Source of the DNA: Candidatus Poribacteria bacterium | GTDB taxonomy: Bacteria; Poribacteria; WGA-4E; UBA9662 | Assembly: GCA_036339735.1 (NCBI GenBank) | Contig: JAYZAL010000038.1 | Coordinates: forward strand, 1 to 64,000 | Reading direction: 5' to 3' | DNA length: 64,000 nucleotides | Shown: piece by piece, positions 10,072 to 52,680 of the stretch | How the letters are laid out: each line of letters starts with the position of its first letter | Position numbering within the stretch: position 1 is the stretch's first letter | Notes under the pieces: model-generated | What the model saw: the letters and a program-made list of their open reading frames with translations, nothing else | Databases searched by the model: none | What the model was told of the DNA's origin: nothing | Position numbers and translations under genes: made by a program

Positions 10072-10818
10072 GTGAGGATAAATATTTTTATGTATACTTT
10101 TTTTCGAAACCATATTTCTCAATTGTTCATTTTCTTTTTTACAATTTTTTTATTTTCAGCTGAAGCCATCGGATTTAATGTTGACATTGATGGTGCCTTG
10201 GATGAGGCTGCTTACAAAAAAGTACCACCACTTAATAGCGCAACAAATATTGGTGTACTCTACCTTGTCCCTATGAAGGATGAATTATATATCGGAGCAG
10301 AAGTCAAAGACGCCAAGATCAATGTAGTCAATCCACAGAAATTCTGGGAAGGTAGCGGTATCGAAATTTGGTTTGATTGGGGAAATGAAGGAAACGCAAC
10401 ATTTGACAAGAACGATCAGCAATTCTGGTTTGTTCCAGTCAAAGGAAAAGGAAAAGAAGGTTATGCTGGTCAATGGCATCGAGCACAAGACAATATTAAA
10501 GCTACTATTTATGATTATGCTAATGAAGGCGATTTAGTCGACATGGCATTTGTTGTCGATAAAGGCCAGGGATATACTATCGAAGCTAGAATTGCAAAGA
10601 AAGCTATAGCTGGCTATAACCCCAATGCAACAATTGGTTTCACCTATTCTGTGGATAAAGGGGGGGCGAAGTTTCAGTGGGACAAAAAGAATTGTGCTAA
10701 TGGTTTTTGGGAAAATCCCAGTATGTGGCCAGACTTGGAACTTTCTGAAATTCTCTCAGTTGATGTCGCGAATAAATTGCCCATTCGTTGGGGAAATCTA
10801 AAGTTGGGGTTACAGTAA
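10072..10818 (+). CDS. Secreted CBM9/DOMON-like sugar-binding protein with C-terminal K-L-x3-W-G-x-L-K motif
   Basis: Signal peptide (start may be ATG 10090); IDGALDE, LYIGAEVKD, IEIWFD, GYTIEARI. Confidence 0.65.
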   Translation: MRINIFMYTFFRNHISQLFIFFFTIFLFSAEAIGFNVDIDGALDEAAYKKVPPLNSATNIGVLYLVPMKDELYIGAEVKDAKINVVNPQKFWEGSGIEIWFDWGNEGNATFDKNDQQFWFVPVKGKGKEGYAGQWHRAQDNIKATIYDYANEGDLVDMAFVVDKGQGYTIEARIAKKAIAGYNPNATIGFTYSVDKGGAKFQWDKKNCANGFWENPSMWPDLELSEILSVDVANKLPIRWGNLKLGLQ

Positions 10819-11816
10819 AAATCCCAATTAGAATCTAAATGTCTAAGTATGTCAATTCTGTCTGGAAATTGCACAAAGGCATGGGATTTGTTTATCCGGT
10901 AATAATCTATTGCGTGTCTGGTTGAAAAATTCGAACCAGATAACTTGTCTCTGAATGACATCTTGTCGCAAGTTGTAAGAAATATAATTGAAAAGAAAAA
11001 AGTAACCTTGATTGAGTTAAAATATATAAAAGAGGCCTAGGGTTGGGTGCACTAGAAGAGTTGGCCCCTTTCTTTTTTCGCATGTAGATCATAGTGAGAA
11101 TCTACATGTTAAATTGAGAACGTTATATAAGAACGGTTTAAGAAAAAATTAAGGTTATTTCTGATTATCTAAGGAGCTGAAAAGATAGGAATTCTCTAGT
11201 TTAGGTTTCTAATCAGATTTTTTTATTTGTTGTAATCACCATCTTTACTATTCTCTGTCGGTGCTCAATTTCACCTCAAATTATGAACAATAGAACAGGC
11301 CTAAAAACAAATCTCTTTTCAGCTGGTGCATCCTATTGACGAGTCCTACTAGCGTTAAACTAGTTCTAAGCCTTTAATTGATGGGTTCAAATTTGGATAT
11401 TCGCCTGAGAGAAGAAATCAAACTTTGGAAGGATAGTGTGCTCAGGTCTATGGCGTCTTAGAATCGGTACGATAATCTTCCGATAATTCGTAGTCCCTGG
11501 TAGATAGACTGGGCCTTCAAGAGCATCAGACTTCAATCCATTTCAGTTACAAAATCACCTGCCCTTCTTTGACACTACTAATCATTACAAACATCATATC
11601 ACAACGGCCGTGGACTGTTCCGAATGAAGAGTTCATATGTATTCGACGACCGAACTCAGTCATAACTACTATGCTGGCAAACTTGATGGTCTATTCTTTG
11701 ACATTCTGTGGACAAATGGAACTATCGATTATCAATACATAAGCAAGAACGGTTCAGTGAATCAAGTGGATGTCATTTGGTTGACAGTCACAATTTTTAG
11801 CTTATAAGGAAAATTT

Positions 11817-12575
11817 ATGTATCAGAAAGAAGTAGAGGAAACTCGTTGTTTGTGGAACAAACTGGCTGACGACTGGTTGATTCAAGTTGGGGATGAAGGG
11901 GACCGTAATCGTATCCTAAATTCTGATCCAGTTTTATGGGAATTTGCAGGGATGGTAGATGGATTAAAAGTAATCGATGCTGGATGCGGTACAGGCTATT
12001 TGGCTAATAAGCTACACCAACTGGGAGCAAAAGTCATTGGTGTTGATTTTTCTATCCGAATGCTGGAGATTGCGGGAAGTCGTTATCCAAATATTGATTT
12101 CCGACTAGATGATTGTTGCCAACTTAGTACAGTGAGTGATGAAGAATTCGATTTGTTGATTTCTAACTATGTACTGATGGACATGCCTGATTTAGATGGG
12201 GCAGTTGACTCATTTTACCGAGTGTTGAAACCAAAAGGGGTTGCTATTATAGTCTTTTCACATCCTTGTTTCGATGTTGGGAATTCAGAAAGTCTGGAAG
12301 GAGGTACCCGTCGTACTTTCACGTGGGAACATCCCTACTTTGAGATTGGAAGGCGTGTTGACAAACCTTGGTCCCATTTTACGGACGAGTTCATCTGGTT
12401 TCACCGACCACTCTCAGACTACTTTAAATCCTTTAAGAGGGCTGGTTTTTTAATAGAAGATTTTGAAGAACCCAGGATCCAGGAAGACAAATATCACTTG
12501 GTAAAAGATGAGAGAAAATTAAGCCAATTAAGTAGTTGGCCTTATTCAGTCGTCTTCAAATTGAACAAAACATAA
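11817..12575 (+). CDS. Class I SAM-dependent methyltransferase
   Basis: VIDAGCGTG, GVDFS, RVLKPKG, FHRPLSDY. Confidence 0.9.
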   Translation: MYQKEVEETRCLWNKLADDWLIQVGDEGDRNRILNSDPVLWEFAGMVDGLKVIDAGCGTGYLANKLHQLGAKVIGVDFSIRMLEIAGSRYPNIDFRLDDCCQLSTVSDEEFDLLISNYVLMDMPDLDGAVDSFYRVLKPKGVAIIVFSHPCFDVGNSESLEGGTRRTFTWEHPYFEIGRRVDKPWSHFTDEFIWFHRPLSDYFKSFKRAGFLIEDFEEPRIQEDKYHLVKDERKLSQLSSWPYSVVFKLNKT

Positions 12576-12961
12576 GACCTGAAATCCAAATCTATAAAAT
12601 TCGAACTAGTTTTTTTACTGAACTTGTGAAACTTGGTTGAAAGGCAGCTAATACAAATAGGATGGACATTATTAACAGCTCAAACTCTCCTTCTTCCCCC
12701 TAGTATTTCAAATTCCAATAATATATACTCGTTGGCCAGGCCATAAAATTTCTGTTATCGCCAATTTTAATTTGGGGGCAATAAATAATTTTATTCAAGC
12801 CTTGGATACCTACGCAGCAACACGATTAAAACCCACTGATCTGGGTAGTCATTATGGCTTACTGCTATTTTTTAGAAGTCTCTTCAATTCGTTTCTATGA
12901 TAACAAATCGATGGGTCGACTCCTGCCAAGACGAACGAAAATGAAGAACAGAGAAGAATCT

Positions 12962-13276
12962 ATGAGCTACGAACCTCACAAGACATCGGCAACACGAACA
13001 ATAGACGATAATTTAGATTATGTGGACTGGCAACTTGTCTATACCATTTCTGATCCGGTTAATCGCCAAATTATTTTGGATGCCTTAGAAGGTGCTAACG
13101 TCCGGACAATTTTGAAATCCCACGATAACGATGCTTATGGTGGGATTCTTGACCACAGATTTGCGCCAGGTTGCGGACAGATTCTAGTCGCACGTCAAGA
13201 AATCGAATTGGCCTCCGAAATCATAGCCGAGCTACTCGGCTCGTTATCATCGACTAATTCTTACCTTGATGAGTAA
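12962..13276 (+). CDS. DUF2007-like small protein
   Basis: W.LVY...D.....I...LE..NV, AYGG, ILV...E.E.A.EII pattern; start uncertain (12941 or 12962). Confidence 0.55.
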   Translation: MSYEPHKTSATRTIDDNLDYVDWQLVYTISDPVNRQIILDALEGANVRTILKSHDNDAYGGILDHRFAPGCGQILVARQEIELASEIIAELLGSLSSTNSYLDE

Positions 13277-13372
13277 TCGGCGATGGATATCGACTTGGTA
13301 ATTGTTTAATAACGATATAGGTAAGGCAAGCCAAGACTCCACGGGCAAGAATTATCGGCTTGTAACGTTAAC

Positions 13373-13594
13373 ATGAAACGACAGACCTCAGGCTCCGGTT
13401 TAACGATACGAGCCTTACTGTTAGCGATGGTCGCCACCACTATAATCGCATTTTGGACTCAACACAGTGATCGGACCTATCGAAAACTGTTGCCATTTTT
13501 CTTAGGACTCATTCTTGGCGATTTCTTCATGGGTGGGTTCTGGGGAGTAGTGGGCTGGTTCTCAGACCGACCAGGTTATATCTTCTTTCCATAA
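13373..13594 (+). pseudogene. Internally deleted remnant of a DUF6785/DUF6784-type membrane protein
   Basis: 73-aa ORF: an N-terminal-like TM joined to YRKLLPFFLGLILGDFFMGGFW, which matches the C-termini of the 7431 and 34049 paralogues. Confidence 0.6.
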
Positions 13595-13708
13595 TTTGTA
13601 CAAATGATAGACAGAAAATGGTTGCAAGACCGTTTCAAACTTGACTCGTACTGTAACCCATTATATGATGCCACCACTGGGCTACCAGTCACATGGAGGA
13701 ATTCATTG

Positions 13709-14062
13709 GATGGCTCGAGTAGAACTAAGAAAAAATTGGTTTTTGGCTTTGGGATTGGTTCTTGTCTTTGACTATAGTTCACTTTCTGCCATTGCTTTTG
13801 AATGGGTCGTTACTCCACTTGGAGGCAAAGATAAGCGCTCAAGTCCTTATGAACCAGGCGATGTCGATTTTTTGGACAATGGCTTTATGACCTGAGCTAC
13901 AGGTGGTGACATCTGGGGAGATAAGTTAGGTTGTACCCTATGTTCACCTTAAAAAGCCAATCAGCGGCAACTTTACCATCGTTTATACTATTGAAGAACA
14001 TACGATTGTCCCTCCTACTGCTTGGAGTAAATGTGGGGTAATGGTGGATCAGGAACTAGATA
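13709..14062 (+). pseudogene. Degraded secreted protein
   Basis: Signal-peptide ORF interrupted by TGA (13893), continues ATGGDIWGDKLGCTL, then shifts frame to GNFTIVYTIEEHT..PTAWSKCGVMV; no C-terminal part found. Confidence 0.5.
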
Positions 14063-14136
14063 TGGCAACAAGAATCTTGGGTAAATTTGCATGACTAAGC
14101 TAACCACAAAAGACCACAATGAGAGAAGGGTCATTT

Positions 14137-15444
14137 ATGGGTGATAAACTGAATATCCTATTCCTTTTCGCTGATCAAATGCACGCGTTTGCAATGGGCT
14201 GTATGGGAAACCCAGAGATTCATACTCCAAATCTGGATTGTATGGCAGACGAAGGCGTTCTGTTTAGGAATACCTATTCGAACGCGCCGGTATGTACTCC
14301 TTTTCGAGCAACTCTTGTCACTGGACGGTATGGGACACAAACCGATACGTTGAAAAATGGTAGCTACTTTCCACAAGAAACTCGCACAGTTGCCACGGCT
14401 TTAAACAATGGAGGATATCGAACCGGCTGGGTAGGTAAATGGCATCTCGGAGGTACTGGAAACGCTTGGATCCCACCGAACCTGCGAGCTGGTTTTTCTG
14501 AGTTTATTGGTTACCAATGCTACAATGATTTTTTACACAGCGTAAAGTTCTATGACGAGGAAGGCAAGGAATACTGGTATGATAAGCACCGAACAGAAGC
14601 CACGACTGATATTGCGATTGAACGACTAGAAGGGATGAAGAAGGGACCGTTTGCACTATTTGTATCTTATCAGAACCCCCACTATCCAGAACAGCCATCA
14701 TATGAATATGATCAAATGTATAAGGGTATCTCTTTGACTAGACGGCCCAATTGCCAAAGCGTTGACCCTTATACTCCAACTCACAGCCCACCGAGTCCCA
14801 AACCAAAGGAAAATGATCCTCTGTACCAAAAGTATGGAAATAATTTGGGGGAGTATCATCGACAGTATTATGCTATGGTTTCACAGTTGGATGCCAACGT
14901 AGGTCGCATTCGCCAAGCGCTTGATCGGCTAGGTCTTGCGAACAATACAGTGGTAATATTTACATCTGATCACGGAGATATGCAAGGAAGCCATGGCCTA
15001 ACTAATAAAGGCACTTTTTGGGAAGAGTCAAGCCGGATTCCGCTAATTGTGTACGTACCAAATGGCGCACAAGGATTGATTTCTGAGGATCTAGTATCAG
15101 GTGTAGATTTCTTTCCTACCTGTTTAGACTATGCTGGGTTACCTCCGGAGCCTTCGGTGGAGGGTGATAGCTTTGCCCCACAAACTCGTGGAGTACATCA
15201 GGTTCTTGAGCGACCAATTTTTTCTGAGATGAGGCAGTGGTGTATGGTACGAAAGGACAATCTTAAACTAGTTGCAACTAAGAAGCCATTGGAAACCACC
15301 CACCTATTTGATCTGGGAGTGGATGAATATGAAATGAACAATTTGATAGGTCATCCTAACTACGCCAGAAGTGAAGAAAATCTCATGTCCATTCTAAAGG
15401 ATTGGTACAAACGAGTTGGGTTAGTAGAGAATCACCCTGACTAG
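14137..15444 (+). CDS. Sulfatase (S1, formylglycine-dependent)
   Basis: NILFLFADQ, CTPFR, GKWHL, FTSDHG. Confidence 0.92.
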   Translation: MGDKLNILFLFADQMHAFAMGCMGNPEIHTPNLDCMADEGVLFRNTYSNAPVCTPFRATLVTGRYGTQTDTLKNGSYFPQETRTVATALNNGGYRTGWVGKWHLGGTGNAWIPPNLRAGFSEFIGYQCYNDFLHSVKFYDEEGKEYWYDKHRTEATTDIAIERLEGMKKGPFALFVSYQNPHYPEQPSYEYDQMYKGISLTRRPNCQSVDPYTPTHSPPSPKPKENDPLYQKYGNNLGEYHRQYYAMVSQLDANVGRIRQALDRLGLANNTVVIFTSDHGDMQGSHGLTNKGTFWEESSRIPLIVYVPNGAQGLISEDLVSGVDFFPTCLDYAGLPPEPSVEGDSFAPQTRGVHQVLERPIFSEMRQWCMVRKDNLKLVATKKPLETTHLFDLGVDEYEMNNLIGHPNYARSEENLMSILKDWYKRVGLVENHPD

Positions 15445-15690
15445 TTGATACCAATAGTCTACCGTTGATTAAATCGGATCAGCTAGAAGGCATTTAAAAA
15501 TTGTACCACGACCGAAATATGTTTTGTTAATTTGACTGAGATTTCTGACCTGATGAACTATAAATGGTATGGGTTCGAAACAATGGTGTAATATTACAAT
15601 CCATGATCATCTGTCGAATTAAACGCATAAGATACTCCAAGCAGGTACTGCTGTTTGCTTTCCAAAGAATCAAATGTAGGAATTTAGCCA

Positions 15691-16572
15691 ATGATCGATT
15701 TTACGGTCTTTGATGTTGACTTTCCGCTAGAAGCCAAGCAGCGTGTTGTCGTCAACACAGATGCTAAAAATGAGGCAGACGATCAATATGCAATTGTCCA
15801 CGCTGTACTAACCGGCATCATTCCTACCCATTTTGGAACACGTAAATCAGTCACAAGTAGCAGGACAGCTACGACGAGACCATGGTTACTCCTACGTCTA
15901 ATGGACCTCGAACAGAAGATAAGAGTCGAAGCCGGCGCAACGCAAGCCATGCCAGACGAATCGACGCCTATTGATTCCTAATCATCGAAGAGGCAATGAA
16001 AGAGGATAAAAGACCACTTCACATCGCCTCCTACGGCCCACTTACTGACATGGCATCCGCAATCTTACTTGAACCCGAGATTCAGAATCGAGGTGTCCGT
16101 GTACTTCTGGATTGGAGGGCACACATGGCCAATTGGAGGTAAGGAGTATAATCTCTCAAACGGCGTCCACGTCGCGAATATGGTAATGAAGTCAAATATT
16201 GAAATGTGGCAAATGCCGAGAAATACTTACTGGTCAATGAGTATTTCTTACGCCGAGCTAATCGAGAAGGTATACCCCTTAGGTGAAATCGGGAAATACC
16301 TAGTCGAGCAACTTCTGGAACACAACGCCAAAAGGAGTCCTATTATAGAATGCCGTTCTCTGGGTGATTCTCCTTGCATTGGCATTATTATTGATCCTGA
16401 GTGCGGCCAGTGGTCCTGGCGTCCGGCTCCAACATTCGACGAGTAGATGCACTATATTCACACTGGACAATACCGATCTATTCTTGTTTACGATGATGTA
16501 AACACCCGTTTTATCCACGAGGATTTTTTCGCCAAACTAGCACAATTTATCCGACGTGGGTCAAAAATCTAA
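15691..16572 (+). pseudogene. Nucleoside hydrolase family pseudogene
   Basis: NTDAKNEADDQYAI, GPLTDMASA, WIGG..W..GG.EYNL and LGDSP lie in different frames; in-frame TAG at 16444; C-terminus EDFFAKLAQF ends TAA 16572. Confidence 0.85.
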
Positions 16573-16650
16573 AAGCATCAAATTCTTTCACTGTTATACC
16601 GTTGGGAGCTTGAAAGCTCCGATTAGCCTCAATCTACAGTACTAAATAAT

Positions 16651-16697
16651 CGAAATCACGCTAGATGGTACCGGTACCGCCTAGATTTCGTTCTTTT
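16651..16697 (+). terminator. Possible intrinsic terminator / dyad element
   Basis: CGAAATC...TAGATGGTACCGGTACCGCCTA-GATTTCG inverted repeat followed by TTCTTTT. Confidence 0.35.
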
Positions 16698-16720
16698 ATG
16701 GGACTACCCTTTATAAAATA

Positions 16721-17845: not shown

Positions 17846-17916
17846 CTGGAACTCGTTTCTCAGGCTCTCATTATGATGATAATGGACATAACACCCTAAA
17901 CTAAGAGGAACTACAG

Positions 17917-18645
17917 ATGAAAATAACCACAAAATATTCGACAGTTCTCTGGATATTTTTTGCAACTTCGATTGGGTATAGTGGCACTTTTTTCGATGAC
18001 TTTAGCGATATTGATAAAAGTAAAGAGATTTGGGAAGTAGTTCATCGAGATTGGAAGATCACAGACGGATTTTATTGGGCGCCAGGGAAAGCCGGTTTAA
18101 AAACGGTTGCCTTGAGCTTACTACCGATTAAGGCTGAAGACGGAATGGTGATTGAAGCACAATGTAGTGATATGGGAGACGGACAATGGCAAAATTTTGC
18201 TATTGTCTTTTCCTATGAAGATGAAGATGAAGTTTATACAGCTGGAGCAGGGGTAGGAAATAAGATGTGGCGATTTTTCCGACTGACCCCAAAGACTGCA
18301 GCTAAAGGAGGTAGATGGGGGGCCGACGTTATTGAGGGCTTACCAACCAAAACGCCTTTAGCTGTCAAGGAATGGTATAACATCCGGATTGAAATTAAAG
18401 GAAATGATGTATTCCTATTTGGCGACTCTAAACCAAAGGGGGTAAAATTGAAAGAAAAACATGTATTTAGGAAAAAAACAGCTCCCAAAGGTCGTTTGGG
18501 TCTTGCCGCGGCAGGTGCGTCACCAATGTATAACCATATCAAAGTTACCGGGCCAAATGTGGAAGACCTGTTTCCTGTTTCGCTTAGAGGCAGACTAAGT
18601 ACTATTTGGGCGCAAATTAAGCGGAAGAATTCCCCTGAGAGATAA
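17917..18645 (+). CDS. Secreted ConA-like/DUF1080-like protein with C-terminal R-L-x3-W-A-x-I-K motif
   Basis: Signal peptide; FFDDFSD, WYNIRIEIKG, GRLGL; GAGG RBS. Confidence 0.6.
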   Translation: MKITTKYSTVLWIFFATSIGYSGTFFDDFSDIDKSKEIWEVVHRDWKITDGFYWAPGKAGLKTVALSLLPIKAEDGMVIEAQCSDMGDGQWQNFAIVFSYEDEDEVYTAGAGVGNKMWRFFRLTPKTAAKGGRWGADVIEGLPTKTPLAVKEWYNIRIEIKGNDVFLFGDSKPKGVKLKEKHVFRKKTAPKGRLGLAAAGASPMYNHIKVTGPNVEDLFPVSLRGRLSTIWAQIKRKNSPER

Positions 18646-18828
18646 AGACAATGACAAAACCGTTTGGATGATCAGTCATGAAGTGAAGGGAAACAACTAG
18701 GGAGATATACTGTTATTGAAGAAACAAATAGTGATTCATTCTTGTTTAACTTGGAATTGTAGCAAACAATATCAATATATAGTCAAAAGATCTCCTTGGA
18801 TGCTGCTTGCCATCTGTTCCTGAAGAAT

Positions 18829-20433: not shown

Positions 20434-20781
20434 TTTTTATTAGAAGTAGCAGACAGGAATCTGATCAACGAAACAATGCTAGTTTTCCTTTTATTCACTT
20501 GCAGAAATTGCCGACCGGACAACTTTCACACCCTATCTTTCGCCTTGATTAATTAACCATTTGTAGACTCATGTTCTACACGAAATCCAGTGAACATATC
20601 GTTGAAATGCACCAAATCATGGATATTATTCAATTTAGTGACATGGGCCTTCACCGTTTTTCCTTTAACTAAATTAATTTGGCTTCTTTATTTCTATAGA
20701 TTTTACTAAAATTGAAGAATTCTGTATACTATCTTCTATTGGTCCCTGATTGTAGGTAATCGCGCAGACTATGTATTGATA

Positions 20782-21060
20782 ATGAATAATAAGCAATCAA
20801 AAGCCGACCCAAAAATGAAAAACTTATCCATCGTCTGGTTGACAAATAGAATGATTAGTCAATGCGAATACGAAATGATGTATCTCCATTTATCGAATCA
20901 ACTCAGCCTAACTCAACAAAGAAATCAGCACTTATGGTTAGCCAGGCTAACTCTATTTTCTGGAGCATCTTTGACAATTGCAGCTATCATATAATTCATT
21001 GCCTCTAACTGGAAAAGATTAGCATACGGATACAAAATCGAATTGATCGGTGGAGCAACA
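20782..21060 (+). pseudogene. DUF2157-like membrane protein N-terminal fragment
   Basis: W....IS, then GASLTIAAII*FIASNWKRL..GYKI with in-frame TAA at 20992; rest of gene not found. Confidence 0.55.
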
Positions 21061-21398
21061 CTAAATAACATACGTTTTGGCCACTTCGTCCTGCCTACTG
21101 AAAGATTACTTCCGGTTTTCCGGTTGTATCACAAAAAATATAGTTGCTGTGCATACGAATTAACTAAGTGTGTATCGATAGTAGTTGTTAGATATGTGAT
21201 CGCGTTGAACCCGTCCTGAATTTTGGCTTCCATAAGAAATCCCCGACCAATCTAATTAGAAAATTGATATCTAAAAACTAGATATTACCTAGATAAATTC
21301 TGATTGTCAGCCCCTCATGTATTACGTGTCACTTAAGTTTGGCATGCGAAATGCTCATCTGTTCCTAGTGATTTTAATAGTTCAAGGAAAAAATTAAT

Positions 21399-21617
21399 AT
21401 GAGTAGTTTGATTATGGCTTCACTGTTTTCATCTTCTCGATCTAAAAAAAGAAGAGTGCGCTCAAGGGAAAAAATGGCTGAAATCAACTCTTCAATTGCC
21501 ACATTTACAAAATTAAAAGAGAAAGGATTGATCTCAGAGCCAGAGTTTGAATTGCTAAAAAATAAATACCTCAATAGATATCAGACATACCTTGATCGAT
21601 CACGATTTGGTATTTAG
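21399..21617 (+). CDS. Small SHOCT-domain protein
   Basis: LKEKGLISEPEFELLKNKYL; AAGGA RBS. Confidence 0.6.
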   Translation: MSSLIMASLFSSSRSKKRRVRSREKMAEINSSIATFTKLKEKGLISEPEFELLKNKYLNRYQTYLDRSRFGI

Positions 21618-22170
21618 AAAGCCAGTGAGGATAGCTGAAAAACTAAACAGTTGTGTACAACTAAGACCGTATACGTCTATTATTTTATATAAAGTGTCAA
21701 CCTGAAGAAAATTTCTGAATAACCGAAGGTCTATCTGTGGCTAGCTTTCGTATGAAAGTTGATGGTAATTCAATTGAGTCTTTACTACCAAGCAATCCAC
21801 ATCCCAATTCGCACCCAACTCAAGCCTAAATTTGGCATCTTTTCGTTTGCCTCAAATACTATGGCAACTCTATTTTTCGCATCTACCCCAAAATTCGATT
21901 GAAGTTGTCTCATTTGTCATCTGGTTATCCCCTAATGTCGAATTGTATAATCGCTTTGTCTACCTGAAGTACAGTTAATCTTTTAGGTGTCTCTTTTTTT
22001 GTAGTTACGTTACTATTTATTTGTTTTCAGAAACTAACTGAGTTCATTTGGTAATAAAGGTAAGACATTATTTACCTAAATTAAGAAAGATTTTTCTCAG
22101 GAAAAATTTGAAGTTGGACTCTATACAAAAGACAATAATGGCTTAAGCATAAAATAGGTTTGGTTAAAAA

Positions 22171-23361: not shown

Positions 23362-24213
23362 CTAAATTAACCGCTCATCTGGAAATCTATTGTACTCCAT
23401 CGGTATAGCATCACCAGAATAATTGGGGATAACTTCCAAAATTTCATGAAGCGCAGATTCTGGCCATTTTCCATGTTTCGTATGGAATTGCTGATGGATC
23501 CAACTTTTTGTCCTTGGATGAAGGTCATCGAAATGCGGGTGATACCAGATGGTAATTACGGTTCGGCGTTCATCTGATTGGTTCTCGTGTGTTGCATGAA
23601 ACATACGTGCATCTCCAATCACTACATCTCCAGCATACATAGGTAGATCCTTTTCTCCCTCGTAATCCAAAAATCTAGGATCGTTGAGGTTTTTCATGTC
23701 GTTAATTTCTGATGTGTGGGCCTCACCCATTTCGTGCAGTATATGCCTCTTTCGATGAGTCCCTGGTAAAATTCTTAAGCACCCATTTTCTCTACTAGTG
23801 TCTTCCATGTAGTACATTAAAAAGATCATTGGGGCAATTTCACCGTATGACCTTGGGTCATCCCACATTAGGCAATCCTGATGCCAATATAGACGAGGAC
23901 CTCTTGGTGGCTTACTGATTATAACGGCTTTCCAGAAAGCACAATCATTCAATCCCATCTGATTTAATGCTTGTAAGACCACAGGGTTACCGACTATTCC
24001 AGAAAGTTCCGGATAGTCATCCGAGTCCACCATCAAACCAGGAGACTGATTTTTATTTGACTGTAAGTCAGCGTGCTTGGCAATCGCTTCATATACACAG
24101 TTCCTTGTGCGACTGAGTAGCTCACTACTTACTACATTCTTCAGGATACAATAACCTTCGCTTTGTAACTGTTCGCGACTGGAAGACAACATCTGCTTTT
24201 TTCTATAATCCAT
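23362..24213 (-). CDS. PhyH family Fe/2OG oxygenase
   Basis: EGYC, WHQD, ENGCLR.LPGTH, FHATH.N....RR. Confidence 0.9.
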   Translation of the reverse strand: MDYRKKQMLSSSREQLQSEGYCILKNVVSSELLSRTRNCVYEAIAKHADLQSNKNQSPGLMVDSDDYPELSGIVGNPVVLQALNQMGLNDCAFWKAVIISKPPRGPRLYWHQDCLMWDDPRSYGEIAPMIFLMYYMEDTSRENGCLRILPGTHRKRHILHEMGEAHTSEINDMKNLNDPRFLDYEGEKDLPMYAGDVVIGDARMFHATHENQSDERRTVITIWYHPHFDDLHPRTKSWIHQQFHTKHGKWPESALHEILEVIPNYSGDAIPMEYNRFPDERLI

Positions 24214-29554: not shown

Positions 29555-29874
29555 TATGGTTCTAAATTTTTCAACTTAAGGGAATGTAATTAAACATACG
29601 ATAGCTATTTGGAGCAGAGAATAAGATCTGACATAGTCCTTTTCCTGAGATTTACTGACAGGCAAATCCATTTCATATGTGTCCTGTAGCATATAACGGA
29701 CACCCCATATCTACAATGGTTGAATTACCTAATAGTTCCTACCCTACTTCTTTGTCTCCAGAACACCGACGTATCACCCGTATTGTATGTAGACATTAAA
29801 GGACCAGTTTGGCCACTAGACCACATACAATACAATAAGTTCAGCTTATAGCTTTGGCTGAAAAAATATTTAGC

Positions 29875-31197: not shown

Positions 31198-31198
31198 A

Positions 31199-32668
31199 TT
31201 AATGGGCTCCATCAGAATATTCAATTTCAATTTTTTTATTATGGGTTGGTTGTTGGTCTTCTTCACTTGGTAGTCGGCCATTCAACAATTGTCTCAGTTG
31301 TGAAGCCTTAATTAGGTAATTGTAACCGGCTTGAAAATAGTCTAACTGGTGTTTAGCGAGTTGTTGCCTGGCTTCCAGTAGACGGATGGTTCCAATTTGC
31401 ATCGCATTATATTGCAGTTGTTGTTGTTCCAAAATTTGATTTTGTCCAGGTAAAACTTGATTTTGATAAAAGTCAACCACCCTTTTTGCACTGATTAGTT
31501 CTGCCTTGAGAATTCTAGCTCTGGATCGAACTTCGACAGCGGTTTGGTAATAAGAGTGCTCTAAGTTTTTTTCCCTAGATTCAAGCATTGATTTTTGGGC
31601 CTGTCCACGATTAAAAATAGGCAATGCTAAACCAATTAGTGGTCCAATCTTTTTTTCTGTCTGGCCTGAAGCGGTTTCCATACCTATTTCAAAATGAGGC
31701 AACAATCCACGCCTCTGCTCTAAGCTAATCTGTTTCCGAATTAGATTGATTTCCTGTTTCTGAATTTTGAGATTGATATTAGCTTCAACAGCCTGATTTT
31801 CAATCTGACTCAGATTGTTTGATTTAATACTGGTTTCTAGGAGAGGTAAAGGTAAATCTGATGGTTGGATCTGCCAGTTAATGTCTTTGCCCCATAACCC
31901 CATCAGTTGGTTAAGTCGCTCACGACTACGACGATAATCATCCTCAACTGTTAATAGACTTAGTTTAGCTTGTTGATAGATGGAAGTTTGTTGTAGGAAA
32001 TCCAAACGAGTAAGGTTACCAGCCTGAAATAGACCAGTGGCAAAATCTGTGGCAGCTTCGTTGGCGAGCACAATTTGGCGATGGACTTCCATACGATACC
32101 AATCAGTTACCAATTGGTGGTATGCTTGCTCAGTTTGACTAATCAAGTCGATTACTTCAGCTCTAATTTGATGAGCTGTCATTTTTACGTAGTACTTTTG
32201 TATTGCCTGTTGTTTAGGGTTAAATAACAGATCAGCTATATCCATACTGATAACCATCTCTGACTCTGCTGAATGTGCATGTTCATTTGGCCAATCTGTA
32301 TGCAGAGAAAAGTGAAGCGACGGGTTTGACCAAATCCCTGAAGCAACCCACTCTGCCTGATCGATGCCTAGCCGTTGGAAACTAGCCTGAAGGGATCTAT
32401 TATTAAGCAAAGCCATTTGGACTGTCCGTTGCAGATCAAGTGGCTGAGACAACATTTCTTCCCGTTTAGCTGAAGATAACGCACCCATTTTAAGCTGATG
32501 ACTAGTCTGTTGTTTAGTAACGGTGCTAATTTCCGAAAAAGTTTGTTGTACAGAGAAATTAGCACAGCCAGTTGCTATAAGCCCAATTACCCACGAGACG
32601 AGCAATATTAGAAACAATGTCTTGAGTCTCCACCAATTTTCAATGATTACTTTCTTTCTATTGGTCAT
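31199..32668 (-). CDS. TolC/CusC-family outer membrane lipoprotein
   Basis: Lipobox ATGC; A..NN..LQA, LPIFNRGQ, YNAMQIG...LL; coupled to MCO. Confidence 0.85.
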   Translation of the reverse strand: MTNRKKVIIENWWRLKTLFLILLVSWVIGLIATGCANFSVQQTFSEISTVTKQQTSHQLKMGALSSAKREEMLSQPLDLQRTVQMALLNNRSLQASFQRLGIDQAEWVASGIWSNPSLHFSLHTDWPNEHAHSAESEMVISMDIADLLFNPKQQAIQKYYVKMTAHQIRAEVIDLISQTEQAYHQLVTDWYRMEVHRQIVLANEAATDFATGLFQAGNLTRLDFLQQTSIYQQAKLSLLTVEDDYRRSRERLNQLMGLWGKDINWQIQPSDLPLPLLETSIKSNNLSQIENQAVEANINLKIQKQEINLIRKQISLEQRRGLLPHFEIGMETASGQTEKKIGPLIGLALPIFNRGQAQKSMLESREKNLEHSYYQTAVEVRSRARILKAELISAKRVVDFYQNQVLPGQNQILEQQQLQYNAMQIGTIRLLEARQQLAKHQLDYFQAGYNYLIKASQLRQLLNGRLPSEEDQQPTHNKKIEIEYSDGAH

Positions 32669-33368
32669 TACTTTCTCCCTGAGTCATTAGTGAACTAGTT
32701 TCTAGCTTAAATGCCTGACTATAGCACTTTAGCATCGTTGCACCAAAATAAGGGTTTCTCACCTCGGCCACCGATTGTAACCAGACTCCTTTTTGTGGTA
32801 CGTGTGGGGCCATACCACACACAAATCCGTAAACTTTCACAGGAAGAGCTAATTTATGTAGCCAATCCAATAAGCTATGGCTTAAAAAACCGTAATGCTT
32901 ACGAGCATCTTGTATGGAGCTAGAAGAGGATAATTGATGACCATACTGATGGATTTTTTCTAGAATCTGAATTATCTTAAGGTCTTCTTGGTTCGTTACA
33001 CTTTTTAGCTGATCTAAGGCAGATAAAAATGTGTGGGATTGAGAGGGAATCGTATCGTATTTGTCCTTAGCTAGCCGATTACCAACGGCAAAGTAAGCTT
33101 CTAACATATTTTGTAAGTATTTAATTGCTTCGTTGGATAAGGCTAAGGTTGAACCTTTCGGCATTTTAGCCCTTTCGCTTTGCCGAATTAGCAGAGTATT
33201 TTTTGATTGATCTAGATTAGTTGAATCTATTTTTGCCGATGTGGGTTGAGCAGGATGGATATTCGAACTATTGGGTGCAGAGTGATGACTACAACCAAAG
33301 ATGAACGCAAATACAAGGGCCGTAATGATCGAAATTAACATATGAATTAGTCGAATGAGGTTTCTCAT
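32658..33368 (-). CDS. DUF3347-domain lipoprotein (metal-efflux associated)
   Basis: Lipobox IFGC; Y..V...LA.D, AR..YG.LS, C.MA....WLQ....NPYFG..M..C. Confidence 0.75.
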   Translation of the reverse strand: MRNLIRLIHMLISIITALVFAFIFGCSHHSAPNSSNIHPAQPTSAKIDSTNLDQSKNTLLIRQSERAKMPKGSTLALSNEAIKYLQNMLEAYFAVGNRLAKDKYDTIPSQSHTFLSALDQLKSVTNQEDLKIIQILEKIHQYGHQLSSSSSIQDARKHYGFLSHSLLDWLHKLALPVKVYGFVCGMAPHVPQKGVWLQSVAEVRNPYFGATMLKCYSQAFKLETSSLMTQGESNDQ

Positions 33369-33434
33369 AACAATCTCCTATCTTAACCATAAATTATCCA
33401 AGTCTTAGATGGTTCAATTGATGATTTGGTGACT

Positions 33435-33488
33435 AAAAAGCACTGGGACTGGGGTCAGGTCCTCCCCAGTAAATGGGGGCCTCAGACC
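33435..33488 (-). promoter_or_regulatory. Alternative hairpins (terminator/antiterminator-like) upstream of the copper operon
   Basis: mRNA GGUCU..CCCCA-UUUAC-UGGGG-A-GGACC competes with ACUGGG(G)...CCCAGU-GC-UUUUU. Confidence 0.4.
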
Positions 33489-33519
33489 AAGTAATAAAAA
33501 ATAAACCGGATTCTAATTT

Positions 33520-33942
33520 CTAAGACAGATACGAAAATGGCGGAGAGCGAGGCGAACAAAAATTTAGGAAAGAATCTAAAATGCTTAGTGTGGAATGATG
33601 TCCGAACCATAAGTAAGAAACTGGCTCTACCGAAACCGGATAGGTGAGACTAGCTAGATCTATTACATGGTAGTAGGTATGTGAGTGTGGCGTTTTATTT
33701 TTACTTTGGTTAATTACTGATTTAATAGAACAACAATTGGTTTTGGTGTTCTTCGGTTCTGAATCAGGTCGATCTGTTTGATAGCAACAAAAAGAAATTT
33801 GATGAAATTTGGCAGTTTTGGAGAGATGGTCTTCGATTTGGTTGCAACTATCTAGACCACCCCAAGCACACACCACCCAGCAGGAAAAGTATACTGGCAA
33901 GGCAATAAGCGCCAGAATTGTTTTTCTTCTACGCTCTGTCAT
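33520..33942 (-). CDS. Cys/His-rich secreted leader protein with C-terminal PRSPP (CutF/CruR-like candidate)
   Basis: Basic+hydrophobic N-terminus, CWVVC, two CC pairs, RSPP five residues before stop; first gene of copper cluster. Confidence 0.6.
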   Translation of the reverse strand: MTERRRKTILALIALPVYFSCWVVCAWGGLDSCNQIEDHLSKTAKFHQISFCCYQTDRPDSEPKNTKTNCCSIKSVINQSKNKTPHSHTYYHVIDLASLTYPVSVEPVSYLWFGHHSTLSILDSFLNFCSPRSPPFSYLS

Positions 33943-34048
33943 ATTTTCTATACTAACCTAATCCCAATATAAAAAACAAATATACTCAAAATAGTCATGG
34001 CCAGCCTTTAGTTGAAAAAACAAACTTTACTCCACATCTTTTCATTGA

Positions 34049-35992
34049 TCACCAATTTTTGAATGCATACATAGGTTGTCCAGTGATTAAGCTCAGTATG
34101 CTCCAGAAACTACCCAAAACAAACTCACCCAAAATCAGTCCAATGAAAAATGGTAATGCCGTTCGATAAACACGTATCCCTCCTAATTTCAGCATTAATA
34201 GTTTTAGAGCCCAACCACATAAAACTGAAGACCAGATCCAGTTCATAGCATAATCATCGGCTAAGGTGTAACCAAGCGGGTGGATCTGCCACCATATCAA
34301 TCTCGATCGAACTATTAGCATTATTAAAGTTAAGCAGAAACCGAGAGCAACTGCAATCAATGCCGGAATATCTGGCGGGTCAGGATAGGTCAACCAACCT
34401 TCTAACAGTGTATAAGGTTCTCTACCAAAGGCAGAAACCGCGTAGCTGGCAATTCCTCGGGATCCACCTTCCAAGTAAAAAGCATCTAATAATTTCCACC
34501 AGACAGTGATAGCACCAATGGCTGAGCCAACAATTAGAGCGAAAAATATGCGACGACTCGAAAATTTCTGGACTTGTGCTAATTTTAAACTTTCTAGCTG
34601 TACTGGCATCGGATGGCATCGATAAGCTCGATTAAACCAAGAGAAGATCGACAAAAGTGTCAGATTTTGATTACCAACTAACTGAGTACCTGTAGCAAAA
34701 ACGACCAATCTCTGTGGCCCCATGAAATGTAGGTCATGAACTGGAGCACCTAGTTCCGCACGAATCCGAGATAATCCAATTGACAAGGTGAAATAAAGCG
34801 AAAAGAAAGCCAAGGCAATCCATACTGACATACCAGCATAAATAGAAAATCCGATGAGAAAAAGGCTACCTACAGACACGTAGATAAAAGCATAACGCAT
34901 CGAAATAGGTCCCTCACTATCCGTATTAGTAGACCGATAAGCTTCAAGTAAGGCATTAATAAAATGGTGTCGACCTGCAAATAGGACAAAAGCAAAAATA
35001 CCCATATAGGCACCAAATGACTGGTGACGAGAATAGGGAAATTGAGGTAATGTACGCCAGCCGAAAGCAGATCCCATCACTTTCAGCCCCTTCATCAACC
35101 AATAGAAAAACCAGCAGGAAAAAGAGAGTTCATGAGGTATTAAAAAAGCCATTGAAACAACAAAAGGAAAAATTCTAACTGGAGTAGGGCCAATCGATTT
35201 CCAAGGCGAATCAGTGACAACAGACCTTAGGTCCAAGCTCCAGATTAGTATCGGTAGATGGGGGAACAGATAGGCTAGTCCATTGTATAGCGTAATGATC
35301 GCTGTTACAATAAAACCAACCCAGAACGGGTATAAGCGTAGGATTTGGTTTTTTGAATCCAATAAGGAAAGTGGTAACTGAGTAATGGGATAAGTTAATC
35401 GTTCATGCTCTACCCATTGGCGACGCAAAATGGCAGATAAACCTGCTGTTACAAAGATAATAGCCATCAAAAAACTTGTCCAAGCACCAATAACAGGTAG
35501 CCAATGTATCAAGTACGCTCCAAATCGATCCTCTCCTTTATAAAAACCATTTAGAATACTACGATCATGAATGACCCACCAATCAGGCAAATAGCTCAGA
35601 AACAATTTATCCCATTCATTTTCTGGTGTAGCAAACCAAGTTGGGTAAGCTGTAATAGGAACGAGTACCTGTAGCATGTCTACACCTGCTACAGCAGTTC
35701 CAATCGTCATAATTGCGTAAATAATAGATAATTCGGTGGTACTTAGGAAGTAGGGTTTCCAAGATTGAGGTAATGATTTCTGCAGAACAACCAAAACAAA
35801 TAGCAATGCTACGACGTGGAAGAATATGGACATGGCCGTCGGGTACGATGCTCCACCAACAGCTGTTCCACCTCCCTGCGTAGAACCACCGCTCAGCATT
35901 TCCATCTTTAACATCCAAATAACGGAAATAGGAACTAGTACATACCCAATTAGCTGTGCACGTATCCTTGTGTCTTGGTTTTTCAATAACAT
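34049..35992 (-). CDS. Polytopic membrane protein, DUF6785/DUF6784-type (putative transporter)
   Basis: WFATPENEW, ERLTYPI.QLP, RIRAELGAPVHDLH, IHPLGY, PFFIGLILGEF; paralogue of 7431-9314. Confidence 0.7.
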   Translation of the reverse strand: MLLKNQDTRIRAQLIGYVLVPISVIWMLKMEMLSGGSTQGGGTAVGGASYPTAMSIFFHVVALLFVLVVLQKSLPQSWKPYFLSTTELSIIYAIMTIGTAVAGVDMLQVLVPITAYPTWFATPENEWDKLFLSYLPDWWVIHDRSILNGFYKGEDRFGAYLIHWLPVIGAWTSFLMAIIFVTAGLSAILRRQWVEHERLTYPITQLPLSLLDSKNQILRLYPFWVGFIVTAIITLYNGLAYLFPHLPILIWSLDLRSVVTDSPWKSIGPTPVRIFPFVVSMAFLIPHELSFSCWFFYWLMKGLKVMGSAFGWRTLPQFPYSRHQSFGAYMGIFAFVLFAGRHHFINALLEAYRSTNTDSEGPISMRYAFIYVSVGSLFLIGFSIYAGMSVWIALAFFSLYFTLSIGLSRIRAELGAPVHDLHFMGPQRLVVFATGTQLVGNQNLTLLSIFSWFNRAYRCHPMPVQLESLKLAQVQKFSSRRIFFALIVGSAIGAITVWWKLLDAFYLEGGSRGIASYAVSAFGREPYTLLEGWLTYPDPPDIPALIAVALGFCLTLIMLIVRSRLIWWQIHPLGYTLADDYAMNWIWSSVLCGWALKLLMLKLGGIRVYRTALPFFIGLILGEFVLGSFWSILSLITGQPMYAFKNW

Positions 35993-36301
35993 TTGATTTT
36001 GAATATAAGGCTCCCTTGGTCTGGTGTCTCAAATGATATGAAATCGGAGGGACTTAGTAGTTTACCCAAATTGGAATCCCTATTTATCAACATTTTTCTT
36101 GAAAATTGTTATTATGGTCTCAGCCCAAAAGTCTTACGTTATTCCGAATTGACTTAGTGGTATTGACTAAGCTCTGAGAGCAAATTAGAATAGAACCAGA
36201 TCTAACAGGTTTTGAGAATTTATCGATGATATTGGCAGTAAATTCTAATTTATTATGCTAGACTTTTCTTTCAGACATGCATTTTAATATTAGTCTTTAT
36301 C

Positions 36302-37738
36302 TTATTTAGTTTGGTAACGAATAAAATGTTTTCCAGCATCAACAATTGTTTCAAAATATCCAGTAGCAACAGATGCAGATAGAGCTGCACCCACAGCAGC
36401 TTCCTCTGTGTGTATTGGTATCGACATAGAAGTCGAAAACTTACTTTCAATCGATTTTTGTAAGACTCTATTACGCCGAATACCATTACCTGCCCCTACG
36501 AGCTTGGTTCGTTCAGACAAACCGGACCTCTTCATTTGTTGATGGAAAACGTCAAATTCATTGGCTATGCCTTCTAGAAGGGAACGTGCAAAATGACCGA
36601 TTGTGAAGTTAGTTTCACTGATGCCTGACCAAATACCTCTTCGATCCGGTTGCTTCCGAGAACCACCGAATATAGGCTCACACCTTAACCCTTCTGATTC
36701 GCCAGGGATACAGTCAGCCAGTTGGTTCAAAATCAAGTAAAGATCACTTGTATTCTGATTTGGTTCTATACCGAAGACCGATTGGCCAATTTGTTGAACG
36801 AAATGCTTGAGCGAACGATAAGACCTGCCACCACATAAGCCGGCGCCAACTAATAGATAACCATCTGACAGAAAGGGTCGAATGTCTAAAGATTCATTTT
36901 GATGCAGATTCGGTACAAAAGCAGAAATTTGGCCACCAGTTCCAACGTTGACCAGAATACTATTTTTAGGATCATCCACACTTCCGGCAAAACTGGCTTG
37001 ATTGTCCCCACAAGCCACTGAAACTGGAACTCCATCTAACGAGTCTAGTTTTTTGACCATACCAGCCACACTACAATTTTCTGAAACAAAAGGGAAATGG
37101 GTTGTGGGTAAATTCAACGACTTGAGAAAGTCTGTGTTCCAGGAGTTATTCGTGATATTGAAACAGCCAGAACTAGCAGCATTGGTTCGATCAGTCGTAG
37201 GTGTACTTTGGCACAATTGACTAACAAGATAATCTGGAGCGAAACAGGCTTGCGTGTTAGCTGGCAGACGACCATTTTCTGAAAGCCAAAATAAAGTCGT
37301 TCCCATATATCCAGTTGAAGGTAAAGAATTAGACTGAGTCGAATTAGCTACTGATCGCATTCGCTGAACATATGTTAAATTGCCAGAATGAATCTGACTC
37401 CCACGTTTATCTTGCCAACCGATAAAGTTTGAGCATGGTTGGTAGTTTTTGTCCAGTAAAGCCATGCCGTGCATCTGTCCAGTCACACCAATTCCTCTAA
37501 TCTCTCGATTTGGTATTCCAGTTGTTATGTTGACCAGTAGATTTAAAGCTAAACTAATCATTCGGTCCAAATCCCATTCTGAATAATTCGGTTGGCCTGA
37601 TATATCTATCTGACTGTCATTATCTATGCTCAATTGCCGAAGAACAGGACTACGGTTAGGAAAGTTCACCACATTCAGATCAATTAGGACAGTACTGATA
37701 GAAGTCGTCCCAAGATCAATTCCAACAAATTTAGACAT
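36302..37738 (-). CDS. FGGY family carbohydrate kinase (sedoheptulokinase/xylulokinase-like)
   Basis: GIDLGTTS, IGVTGQMHG, WQD.R, GDNQASF.G, NVGTGGQ, EEAAVGAA. Confidence 0.9.
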   Translation of the reverse strand: MSKFVGIDLGTTSISTVLIDLNVVNFPNRSPVLRQLSIDNDSQIDISGQPNYSEWDLDRMISLALNLLVNITTGIPNREIRGIGVTGQMHGMALLDKNYQPCSNFIGWQDKRGSQIHSGNLTYVQRMRSVANSTQSNSLPSTGYMGTTLFWLSENGRLPANTQACFAPDYLVSQLCQSTPTTDRTNAASSGCFNITNNSWNTDFLKSLNLPTTHFPFVSENCSVAGMVKKLDSLDGVPVSVACGDNQASFAGSVDDPKNSILVNVGTGGQISAFVPNLHQNESLDIRPFLSDGYLLVGAGLCGGRSYRSLKHFVQQIGQSVFGIEPNQNTSDLYLILNQLADCIPGESEGLRCEPIFGGSRKQPDRRGIWSGISETNFTIGHFARSLLEGIANEFDVFHQQMKRSGLSERTKLVGAGNGIRRNRVLQKSIESKFSTSMSIPIHTEEAAVGAALSASVATGYFETIVDAGKHFIRYQTK

Positions 37739-37930
37739 ATCACCGCTCAAATAGTTGATTAACAATTCGATCCATAAGATTGCAAAGAGAGCCGCTCATT
37801 ATAGGTCAGTCGAGTTTATTGGTCAAACCACAGGTAATTTATTATAGATAACACGTACCAGAAATTAGGTCGACTGATAATCACCCTGACCATTATGGTA
37901 ATCTTTTAAGAATACTTGAAAGGATCAATT

Positions 37931-38716
37931 ATGAGTTCGATCATCCAAACAAATAAGAACATTACGACTAAACTCAACCTCTTTCTCTTATCCTTTTATT
38001 TTATCTTCTTTTTAGCGACGATCAATCTTGAAGCTGGAGATCTGGTTCTACATCTAACTTTCGATAAGTTCTCCGGGCCTGTTGTGAAAGACCAATCAGG
38101 TTTTGGTCATAACGCAACTTTTAATGTTCAGCCTAGAGAAACTAAAGGCCCATTGGGTAATCAGGCCGCAAAACTGGATGGTGTCAGTTGGGCAGAAATT
38201 GAAGATAGCGACGATCTTGATTTGATGACAGCTTTGACCATCGAGGCTTGGGTGTTTATTAGTTCTGATGAGAAACAAATCGTGGTGGAGAAAGGTGCTA
38301 CTTGGAAAAGAGATGGCGAATACAGTCTATTATTTTACGAAAAGCGAAGACCCGTAATTCAGGCACAAGACCTTGCTGATAATTGTGATGATGAAGCGGT
38401 AGGCGATGAAATACCACGTGATACTTGGACACATATAGCCGGTACCTGGGATAGTAAAGCCTTCAAATTATATATCAATGGTGAATTGAATCTAGAACTT
38501 GAGTGTGCCGGAAAACTATTAAAAAGCCAGGAATCTTTGTATATTGGTAGTCGAGGAGGAGGCCTCCGTTTTCTCAAAGGATCTATTGACGATTTACGGA
38601 TTTATAACTATGCATTAGAAAATAAGCAAATTCGAATGGACATGGAAAATAAGCTATTGATCTCGAAAAAAGAGAAGATCGCAACCACTTGGGGAAGAGT
38701 CAAGGCAGTCAGGTAG
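37931..38716 (+). CDS. Secreted LamG-like jellyroll protein with C-terminal K-I-x3-W-G-x-V-K motif
   Basis: Signal peptide; LTIEAWV, WTHIAGTWD, LYINGE, G.IDDLRIYN.AL. Confidence 0.85.
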   Translation: MSSIIQTNKNITTKLNLFLLSFYFIFFLATINLEAGDLVLHLTFDKFSGPVVKDQSGFGHNATFNVQPRETKGPLGNQAAKLDGVSWAEIEDSDDLDLMTALTIEAWVFISSDEKQIVVEKGATWKRDGEYSLLFYEKRRPVIQAQDLADNCDDEAVGDEIPRDTWTHIAGTWDSKAFKLYINGELNLELECAGKLLKSQESLYIGSRGGGLRFLKGSIDDLRIYNYALENKQIRMDMENKLLISKKEKIATTWGRVKAVR

Positions 38717-52576: not shown

Positions 52577-52680
52577 AGTAAATCTCCTTAAATTTCTAGT
52601 TTTGTTTTCTTGAGTCTGTAGACAATTTGAGTCAGGTTATAAAACTTTTAGCCCATAAGCTTGTTACCGCTTGATTTTTC

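Follow-up and report, generated by a model that had tools for sequence, protein, structure and literature searches.

A short C-terminal tag on small exported proteins of Poribacteria as a candidate signal of a type-IX-like secretion system

Why do three unrelated exported proteins, encoded on one stretch of a Candidatus Poribacteria genome, end in the same short segment a few residues before the stop? The stretch in question, here called the window, comprises the first 64,000 nucleotides of contig JAYZAL010000038.1 (assembly GCA_036339735.1), and a sequence-only reading of it had proposed that the shared segment is a candidate signal for protein sorting or surface attachment. We surveyed the genome to which the window belongs (4.32 Mb, 92% complete; the window is contig C38:1-64000) and found that the three tails are members of one genome-wide C-terminal tag. 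By sequence comparison, this tag is a homologue of the stretch that precedes a subclass of type A C-terminal domains (CTDs), the sorting domains used by type IX secretion systems (T9SS). We propose, with about an even chance of being right, that it is a short, CTD-less signal of a type-IX-like system, in which a PorU-like transpeptidase would cut before the tag and attach or release small cargo.

The three window proteins and their tags are listed here in amino acids (aa) and bits of the tag profile described below.

10072..10818, plus strand, tagged exported protein 1: signal peptide, CBM9-like domain and tag (CBM9_1, E 1e-12)
10756..10803, plus strand, tag 1: 16 aa including the small residue preceding the conserved Val; 4 residues to the stop; 28.8 bits
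17917..18645, plus strand, tagged exported protein 2: ConA-like; in a 12-member family, some members of which match PF06439
18574..18621, plus strand, tag 2: 7 residues to the stop; 31.7 bits
37916..38716, plus strand, tagged exported protein 3: Laminin_G_3 (E 5e-24); in a 38-member passenger family
38657..38704, plus strand, tag 3: 3 residues to the stop; 28.2 bits

The 15-residue segments first noticed lie at 10759-10803, 18577-18621 and 38660-38704, and a claimed distance of 3-8 residues from the stop agrees with the measured 4, 7 and 3. Protein 1 probably starts at 10090, matching its 242-aa relatives. Pfam bears out the CBM9-like and LamG folds ascribed to proteins 1 and 3. For the ConA/DUF1080-like fold ascribed to protein 2 the result is mixed: the protein has no Pfam match of its own, but PF06439, matched within its family, is a 3-keto-disaccharide hydrolase domain. 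None of the three window proteins matches the CTD models TIGR04183 or PF18962. Among 28 relatives of the CBM9 protein (133-424 aa; longer forms were not searched), only PF06452 is listed and no CTD-bearing form occurs. An AlphaFold model of the CBM9 protein has a mean predicted local distance difference test score (pLDDT) of 50, and below 50 in the tail, which is too weak to rely on. RNA contigs from four runs (three studies) cover parts of the LamG gene, one of them spanning tag and stop, although such contigs cannot show transcription.

Is the tag more than a coincidence of three tails? The consensus first derived from them has 44 C-terminal and no internal matches in 3,246 genes, against a mean of 0.05 and a maximum of 1 in 20 shuffles of the proteins, and the tag is therefore not a chance pattern. 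A profile seeded with the three window tails only, and iterated blind to position, converges at 91 matches (93 at a looser cut-off). All 91 lie within 20 aa of the stop. The genome scan that had been suggested as a check thus finds the tag enriched at C-termini, and it is neither internal, nor rare, nor part of one fold. The logo of the 93 matches reads [LTF]-[ASP]-V-[DES]-P-x-x-K-L-[ATS]-T-T-W-[GAS]-x-[ILV]-K, with Trp in 93/93 and Val in 83/93, a near-invariant Lys and a small residue after the Trp. The tail behind the last Lys is polar and basic, runs for 1-13 residues to the end and is net positive in 82/93. In the phylum Poribacteria, the profile matches 151/151 genomes, with at least 55 copies in most. 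As had been noted, the pectate lyase, the lipoproteins and the outer-membrane protein of the window lack the tag, since no other window open reading frame (ORF) scores above 7.7 bits; genome-wide, in contrast, two lipoproteins carry it. An ESM Atlas search with a window tail matched three clusters at 0.82-0.86 and was uninformative.

The tag is carried by a wide range of passengers. Signal peptides, called with a crude hydrophobicity filter, are found in 83/87 complete tagged proteins as opposed to 613/2,844 untagged ORFs, and no twin-arginine motif was seen. The earlier claim of N-terminal signal peptides thus stands for the tagged proteins at large; protein 2 of the window is among the four that fail the filter, though it appears signal-peptide-like by eye. 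Once tail and signal peptide are removed, the passengers cluster into 26 unrelated families. These include LamG (38 members), 3-keto-disaccharide-hydrolase-like, CBM9, F5/8, cohesin and HmuY families and many without a Pfam match, as judged from a scan of 59 chosen proteins of the 93. HmuY, cohesin and F5/8 domains show that the tag is not confined to glycan binders. Position, breadth of passengers and genome-wide counts all support the idea of a portable C-terminal signal for the sorting or attachment of exported binding proteins.

Tag and lipid anchor seldom meet on one protein. A lipobox is detected by regular expression in 4/93 tagged proteins (two of them convincing) versus 88/586 untagged signal-peptide proteins. 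A heme-uptake-like locus at C80:12282-19910 encodes two HmuY paralogs, a probable TonB-dependent receptor, ABC parts and a Fur-like gene. One paralog is a lipoprotein without the tag, the other has an ordinary signal peptide and the tag. The same split recurs among 53 HmuY ORFs from 30 loci of relatives: 27 are lipoproteins without the tag, 20 have the tag and no lipobox by regular expression, and the six others resolve likewise by eye. HmuY is a surface hemophore in Bacteroidota, and the tag may therefore stand in for the lipid anchor.

To which system, then, could the tag belong? The motif had been said to fit none, a claim that gives way once the sequences in front of type A CTDs are considered. 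A subtilase of the source genome (one of 43 CTD proteins) has a tag-like stretch, with Phe for Trp, directly before its CTD. The pattern G-x-h-K...N[YF]PNPFN is found in 58/61 genomes of the phylum, and a reversed-pattern control in none. Out of 466 matches, 31 CTDs at 30 loci were read; in these the segment keeps one register and stops 6 aa ahead of N[YF]PN. Its columns hold Val in 21, Glu in 18, Pro in 19, and Thr in 18 and 19 of the 31, while the column of the Trp holds Leu in 22, Phe in 4 and Trp in 1. Scored on the columns that the pattern leaves free, 24/31 segments score above the 99th percentile of 2,009 null sites and seven do not. A profile comparison yields 94% over 24 columns, partly by construction. 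In an AlphaFold model of tag plus CTD, the CTD reaches a pLDDT above 90, and the tag lies outside the CTD strands at 58-76 with no strand or helix called.

The start of the tag points in a similar direction. It opens with [GSA][VLI] in 62/93 cases (background 4.5%) and with [GSA][VLI][DE] in 38/93 (background 0.6%). PorU products are described as beginning with (GSA)(VLI) in Porphyromonas gingivalis (PMC4560394), and a PT/GI consensus is given for the PorU-cut start in Prevotella intermedia (PMC11969387). At the level of sequence, the tag start resembles this small-Val-acidic pattern downstream of PorU cuts. Tagged proteins and CTD proteins also differ in size: 86/87 of the former and 1/40 of the latter have at most 350 aa.

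These data bear on two simpler explanations. The sequence-only reading had envisaged an amphipathic Trp/Lys helix, which might bind the membrane or lipopolysaccharide directly, without a protein reader. The positive charge of most tails would suit such a helix, and a short one is indeed modelled over the W-x-x-h-K turn (pLDDT <50). The claim fails the moment test, however, as the helical moment is 0.29 versus 0.31 in shuffles and the strand moment 0.40 versus 0.30 (maximum 0.35), and only that last turn is modelled as helical, at low confidence. The high sequence specificity of Trp and Val, and the replacement of Trp by Leu or Phe only when a CTD follows, also speak against direct lipid binding, which we consider very improbable. 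Alternatively, the tag could be a functionless remnant of CTD loss, or the structural end of lectin folds. Since the segment is homologous to a pre-CTD spacer, truncation could leave the tag behind. Yet it is kept on 26 unrelated families and in every one of the 151 genomes, Val and Trp are invariant within one passenger family while the flanking tail residues vary, and the terminal copies have a Trp signature of their own. We regard this as the least probable of all explanations and give it hardly any weight.

The source genome contains a type-IX-like kit. It has 42 type A CTD matches, a SprA homologue of 2,172 aa (TIGR04189, E 7e-39, 133 bits, below the 200-bit cut-off), 18-19 PorV-family barrels (NF033709 over cut-off) and a pair of PorU-like C25 proteins, each with a CTD of its own and an intact His/Cys dyad, both below the NF033707 equivalog cut-off. 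Within the phylum, SprA-like matches occur in 13/13 genomes, and 60/61 genomes have at least two PorU-like genes. Among the 58 tag-bearing genomes searched, 57 have SprA-like genes and all 58 have PorV- and PorU-like genes; in the full set of 60, which includes tag-less controls, the counts for SprA-, PorV- and PorU-like genes are 58, 59 and 59. Because the genomes were chosen for having tags, this co-occurrence indicates compatibility, not exclusivity. The motor is another matter. GldM was not found in the source genome, given its 92% completeness, and exceeds the cut-off in 0/58 tag-bearing genomes and only in the tag-less Bacteroidales control. GldN appears in the source genome only at E 0.09, and GldK matches fall on two FGE-sulfatase proteins, far below cut-off. 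The GldLM motor and GldKN hub were thus not detected in the source genome, where GldM, GldN and GldK were sought and GldL was not searched. Earlier, Kamke et al. (2014) reported TIGR04183 domains in Poribacteria; structural genes were not found in that study and the pathway was left open (PMC3909097).

Two side observations concern these components. The SprA-like barrel (C3:40581-47099; L025) has a Phe-Gly-rich stretch or loop at residues ~756-800. Some PorV-family barrels are fused to SLT, OmpA/SPOR or other domains, and one (C101:21100-22783) follows a TonB C-terminal-domain gene in the space that separates two tagged genes.

A machinery unrelated to T9SS could also read the tag, for instance the secretin system, a protease of the periplasm or a scaffold that retains the protein, and the occurrence of the tag before CTDs would then be a fusion of two independent labels. 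The source genome does have one secretin system, Poribacterial tag genes show no linkage to T9SS parts, and GldM and GldN were not found. Against this stand the register of six residues with the CTD, fixed across families, the near-universal SprA-, PorV- and PorU-like genes, and the operons, described below, in which other groups join tag genes to a PorU-like clade. The tag has no transmembrane segment, and the exosortase model PF09721 has no match in the source genome (sortase, rhombosortase and CPBP enzymes were not searched). We therefore judge an unrelated machinery to be quite improbable.

Does the tag occur outside Poribacteria? A motif-based search pattern retrieved a similar, TWG-type tag from at least 127 loci titled Latescibacterota, Krumholzibacteriia, Eisenbacteria, Zixiibacteriota, Gemmatimonadota, Ignavibacteria and others, two of the named matches being due to chance. 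Upstream positions outside the search pattern read [PA]-[VT]-E. Of the complete proteins, 43/51 look exported, and they span 178-497 aa. Searched with a profile of the similar tag, 31 genomes yield 9-89 copies, a Zixibacteria genome has one and 13/13 Ignavibacteria-type genomes have exactly one; two controls and four Poribacteria genomes have none. The profile matches 1,317 protein clusters, with a C-terminal copy in all of the best 150 of the 1,317. The Poribacterial and similar tag profiles share an 11-column core, partly by construction, which makes homology of the two tags likely, though not proven. The tag may thus not be lineage-specific, and the earlier suggestion that it is has become doubtful. 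Compared with the tag-plus-CTD profile, the similar tag reaches a probability of 9%. No Pfam or NCBIfam model covers either tag.

In Ignavibacteria, the single-copy tagged protein is conserved (602 relatives), has ~130 aa and consists of a signal peptide, an Ig-like domain and a TWG-type tag. It may be a component of the system and not cargo. Its gene (L143:3004-3396 in Rosettibacter primus; L116-L177) has housekeeping surroundings and usually lies just upstream of a Maf-like gene. In R. primus, one type of Ig-like domain is followed either by the similar tag or by a T-G-I-K-E linker and a CTD (33% identity, E 1e-16), and the tag start falls in register with this linker.

The other groups also offer a candidate reader. 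Outside Poribacteria, a second clade of PorU-like C25 proteins separates from canonical PorU with support 100/99 and retains His and Cys in 17/17 rows. In Krumholzibacteria/Eisenbacteria-type genomes, its genes follow one to five same-strand tag genes. Tag genes lie within 3 kb upstream on the same strand at 11/13 informative loci of this clade (four further loci have no upstream DNA), versus 0/20 canonical PorU loci (17 with >5 kb upstream) and 5/145 ordinary CTD genes, the latter control coming from two complete genomes with 145 of 254 matches used and five short frames dropped. The force of this count is reduced by the fact that 10 of the 20 second-C25 loci had been picked for coordinate overlap with tag genes and that kin are not independent; among the ten unpicked loci, 4/6 informative ones are positive. 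A complex prediction for the operon-linked C25 protein (residues 255-1215) and the similar tag scored 0.00 against a mark of 0.32, was run without controls and counts neither way.

The operons L263-L270 are conserved among Krumholzibacteria/Eisenbacteria-type genomes. They encode three to five tagged proteins together with one whose C-terminal end consists of two dockerin-like repeats and, in some cases, a multiheme cytochrome; the second C25 protein follows these. They possibly specify a sortase-assembled surface structure. Neither the tag profile nor an operon-protein profile retrieved anything under E 0.5 from PDB sequences.

For Poribacteria themselves, we infer that the reader is one of the two phylum-wide PorU-like paralogs. 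The second Poribacterial PorU was considered as an ortholog of the operon-linked C25 clade, which is not supported; the paralogs form their own clade (100/97), and judged by this placement the pair is a parallel duplication. The paralog that is not encoded beside PorV (C16:26838-32993) would be the likelier candidate; the other lies at C38:117621-123827.

From these elements the proposed type-IX-like route can be drawn. Sec would carry the protein to the periplasm, as the signal peptides called by the crude filter imply. Small single-domain cargo (~200-350 aa) carries the tag alone, and large cargo has a type A CTD, which in some cases is preceded by that segment. The small proteins might then pass the outer membrane via the SprA-like barrel without a CTD of their own. 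Outside, a PorU-like C25 cysteine transpeptidase would read the tag: it would recognise K-L-x-T-T-W-G-x-h-K, and the putative cut would fall at the small-Val-acidic start. Cleavage just before the tag would link the protein to a surface acceptor or release it. The outcome would be a coat of small lectin-like and ligand-binding proteins.

Several observations weigh against this proposal. In Flavobacterium, loading of SprA is reported to need no energy, while release needs the GldLM motor and the CTD-carrier complex (PMC10994853); a tag without a CTD fold, in genomes where GldM is not found, would be at odds with these transport requirements. The reported PorU preference before the cut is T/E/D/N (PMC10202324), but these residues precede the putative cut in only 20/93 tags, where Leu and Phe dominate, and Pro is frequent at the following position of the similar tag (40/88). 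Three C25 proteins with Asp for the catalytic His likewise follow tag genes. On some lipoprotein-like proteins of relatives (P0181, P0304, P0182, P0316), two to four similar tags stand in tandem or internally, four of them on one lipoprotein, which suggests binding over cutting. In the source genome, tag genes lie beside CTD genes at chance level (9/93 versus 10.4% of controls), and Poribacterial tag genes lie beside PorU-like genes in only 1/16 informative loci. Since the Poribacterial paralogs form their own clade, neither is orthologous to the operon-linked enzyme. The two tag profiles have nothing beyond their 11-column core in common, with no cross-matching of genomes at E<=0.01. Finally, the HmuY split counts as one evolutionary event, because it involves one orthologous pair.

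Some of these points would be better explained if the tag were a non-covalent docking peptide of the same T9SS-like system. Here, the uncut tag would plug into a receptor that conveys the protein or keeps it at the surface; a PorV-family barrel, a C25 domain serving as scaffold or a carrier with a CTD could play this part. Tandem and internal tags, the poor PorU fit of the residue before the putative cut and the C25 proteins without catalytic His all favour docking. In line with this, PorV-family barrels are expanded (8-31 per tag-bearing genome versus 5 in one Bacteroidales control), two of them adjoin tag genes in the source genome, and the invariant Trp, the near-invariant Lys and the small residue after the Trp would suit a protein pocket. 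Docking would not, however, require the conserved small-Val-acidic start or the register with the T-G-I linker, nor the His and Cys that the operon-linked C25 clade retains in every row. We consider docking, the main rival, possible, if doubtful.

Cleavage by a PorU-like transpeptidase, our preferred reading, can also be extended to a motor-less, two-lane type IX system in Poribacteria and several other groups. In this extension, the CTD and a PorV-type carrier would serve large cargo, and small cargo, needing no CTD, would go through the SprA-like pore; outside, a second PorU-like transpeptidase devoted to the 16-residue tag would catch it. We think it unlikely that this whole scheme is correct.

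How does the tag compare with known C-terminal signals? With the type A CTD (TIGR04183/PF18962) and its partners PorU (NF033707) and PorV (NF033709/NF033710) it shares the Sec signal peptide and the use of one C-terminal label on unrelated passengers. In most copies its first residues resemble the (GSA)(VLI) with which PorU-released CTDs begin, real CTDs are preceded by this segment too, and SprA-, PorV- and PorU-like genes accompany it. However, the type A CTD is a beta-sandwich of 70-80 aa with motifs B, D and E, whereas the tag has ~16-20 aa, no beta-sandwich and none of these motifs, is limited to small cargo, is mostly preceded by Leu or Phe, and occurs in a host where GldM/GldN were not detected. 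The short CTDs known from P. intermedia illustrate that T9SS signals can shrink to 40-55 aa and still be sortase-cleaved (PMC11969387). As described there, motifs B, D and E persist in them, as does a sheet of three strands modelled on PorV, whereas the tag keeps only the pre-CTD segment.

Tripartite signals (LPXTG, PEP-CTERM, GlyGly-CTERM and MYXO-CTERM) resemble the tag in being C-terminal, present in many copies per genome and basic at the end, in their near-invariant signature and in the signal peptides of their proteins; as with the similar tag, the enzyme gene lies beside its substrates in some lineages (bioRxiv 10.1101/2023.06.07.544157). The tag differs from them in having no transmembrane helix, in the lack of an exosortase match and in its candidate enzyme, a surface C25 cysteine protease and not a membrane-bound one. 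Judged by its sequence, it is neither a type A CTD nor a tripartite signal, and looks like a pared-down T9SS/PorU signal.

The tag has some likeness to the dockerin-cohesin pair: it, too, is a short module that takes the same position ahead of the CTD, and cohesins and dockerins occur on tagged and CTD proteins. The tag logo, however, has no calcium-binding loop (D-x-N-x-D-G plus helix repeat). Dockerin ancestry was rejected, with an hhalign probability of 0.03% for the similar tag against the dockerin-like operon proteins. Cohesin proteins with the tag are encoded at C91:3754-5346, C104:131203-132243 and C50:8423-12859, and many CTD proteins carry dockerins, a distribution that hints at a cellulosome-like surface assembly.

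We found no description of the tag in the literature searched (subscription papers and supplements were outside that search) and no paper on TWG together with T9SS; the accessible part of the Haft preprint (bioRxiv 10.1101/2023.06.07.544157) does not mention TWG, Poribacteria or T9SS. The reviews consulted place T9SS in Bacteroidota or the FCB group and distinguish three CTD classes (PMC10202324, PMC11205867). New here are SprA-, PorV- and PorU-like genes across Poribacteria, with no motor detected, and a fourth label, of peptide size, that is tied to this system. If our preferred reading is correct, it would explain how dominant sponge symbionts and their planktonic relatives display binding proteins, ~90 in the source genome and at least 55 in most relatives. 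It would raise the question how a T9SS works without GldLM, and it would provide a minimal tag for surface display. If the two-lane extension were true, a Gram-negative sortase-plus-peptide-tag system would exist across several phyla. Cultured Ignavibacteria, with their one conserved tagged protein, make the system testable.

Some minor observations remain. A scan of viral sequences with the tag gave three matches, one in frame at the C-terminus. A contig of a viral collection (L395:314-1438) encodes, in a 375-aa frame, a signal-peptide protein ending in the Poribacterial tag, which may come from a phage or from host DNA. At C30:42877-43617 (L043:1003-1740), a LAGLIDADG-like ORF is flanked by two tagged genes. 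In the window, stretches without an ORF of at least 100 aa include 1950-3166, 9315-10071, 20434-22170, 51935-53598 and other gaps. Two DUF6785/DUF6784 membrane proteins are encoded at 7431-9314 and 34049-35992, and seven PhyH dioxygenase genes fall within the 64 kb, at 6170-7111, 23362-24213, 43647-44420, 46227-47054, 47688-48431, 55267-56088 and 57237-57998.

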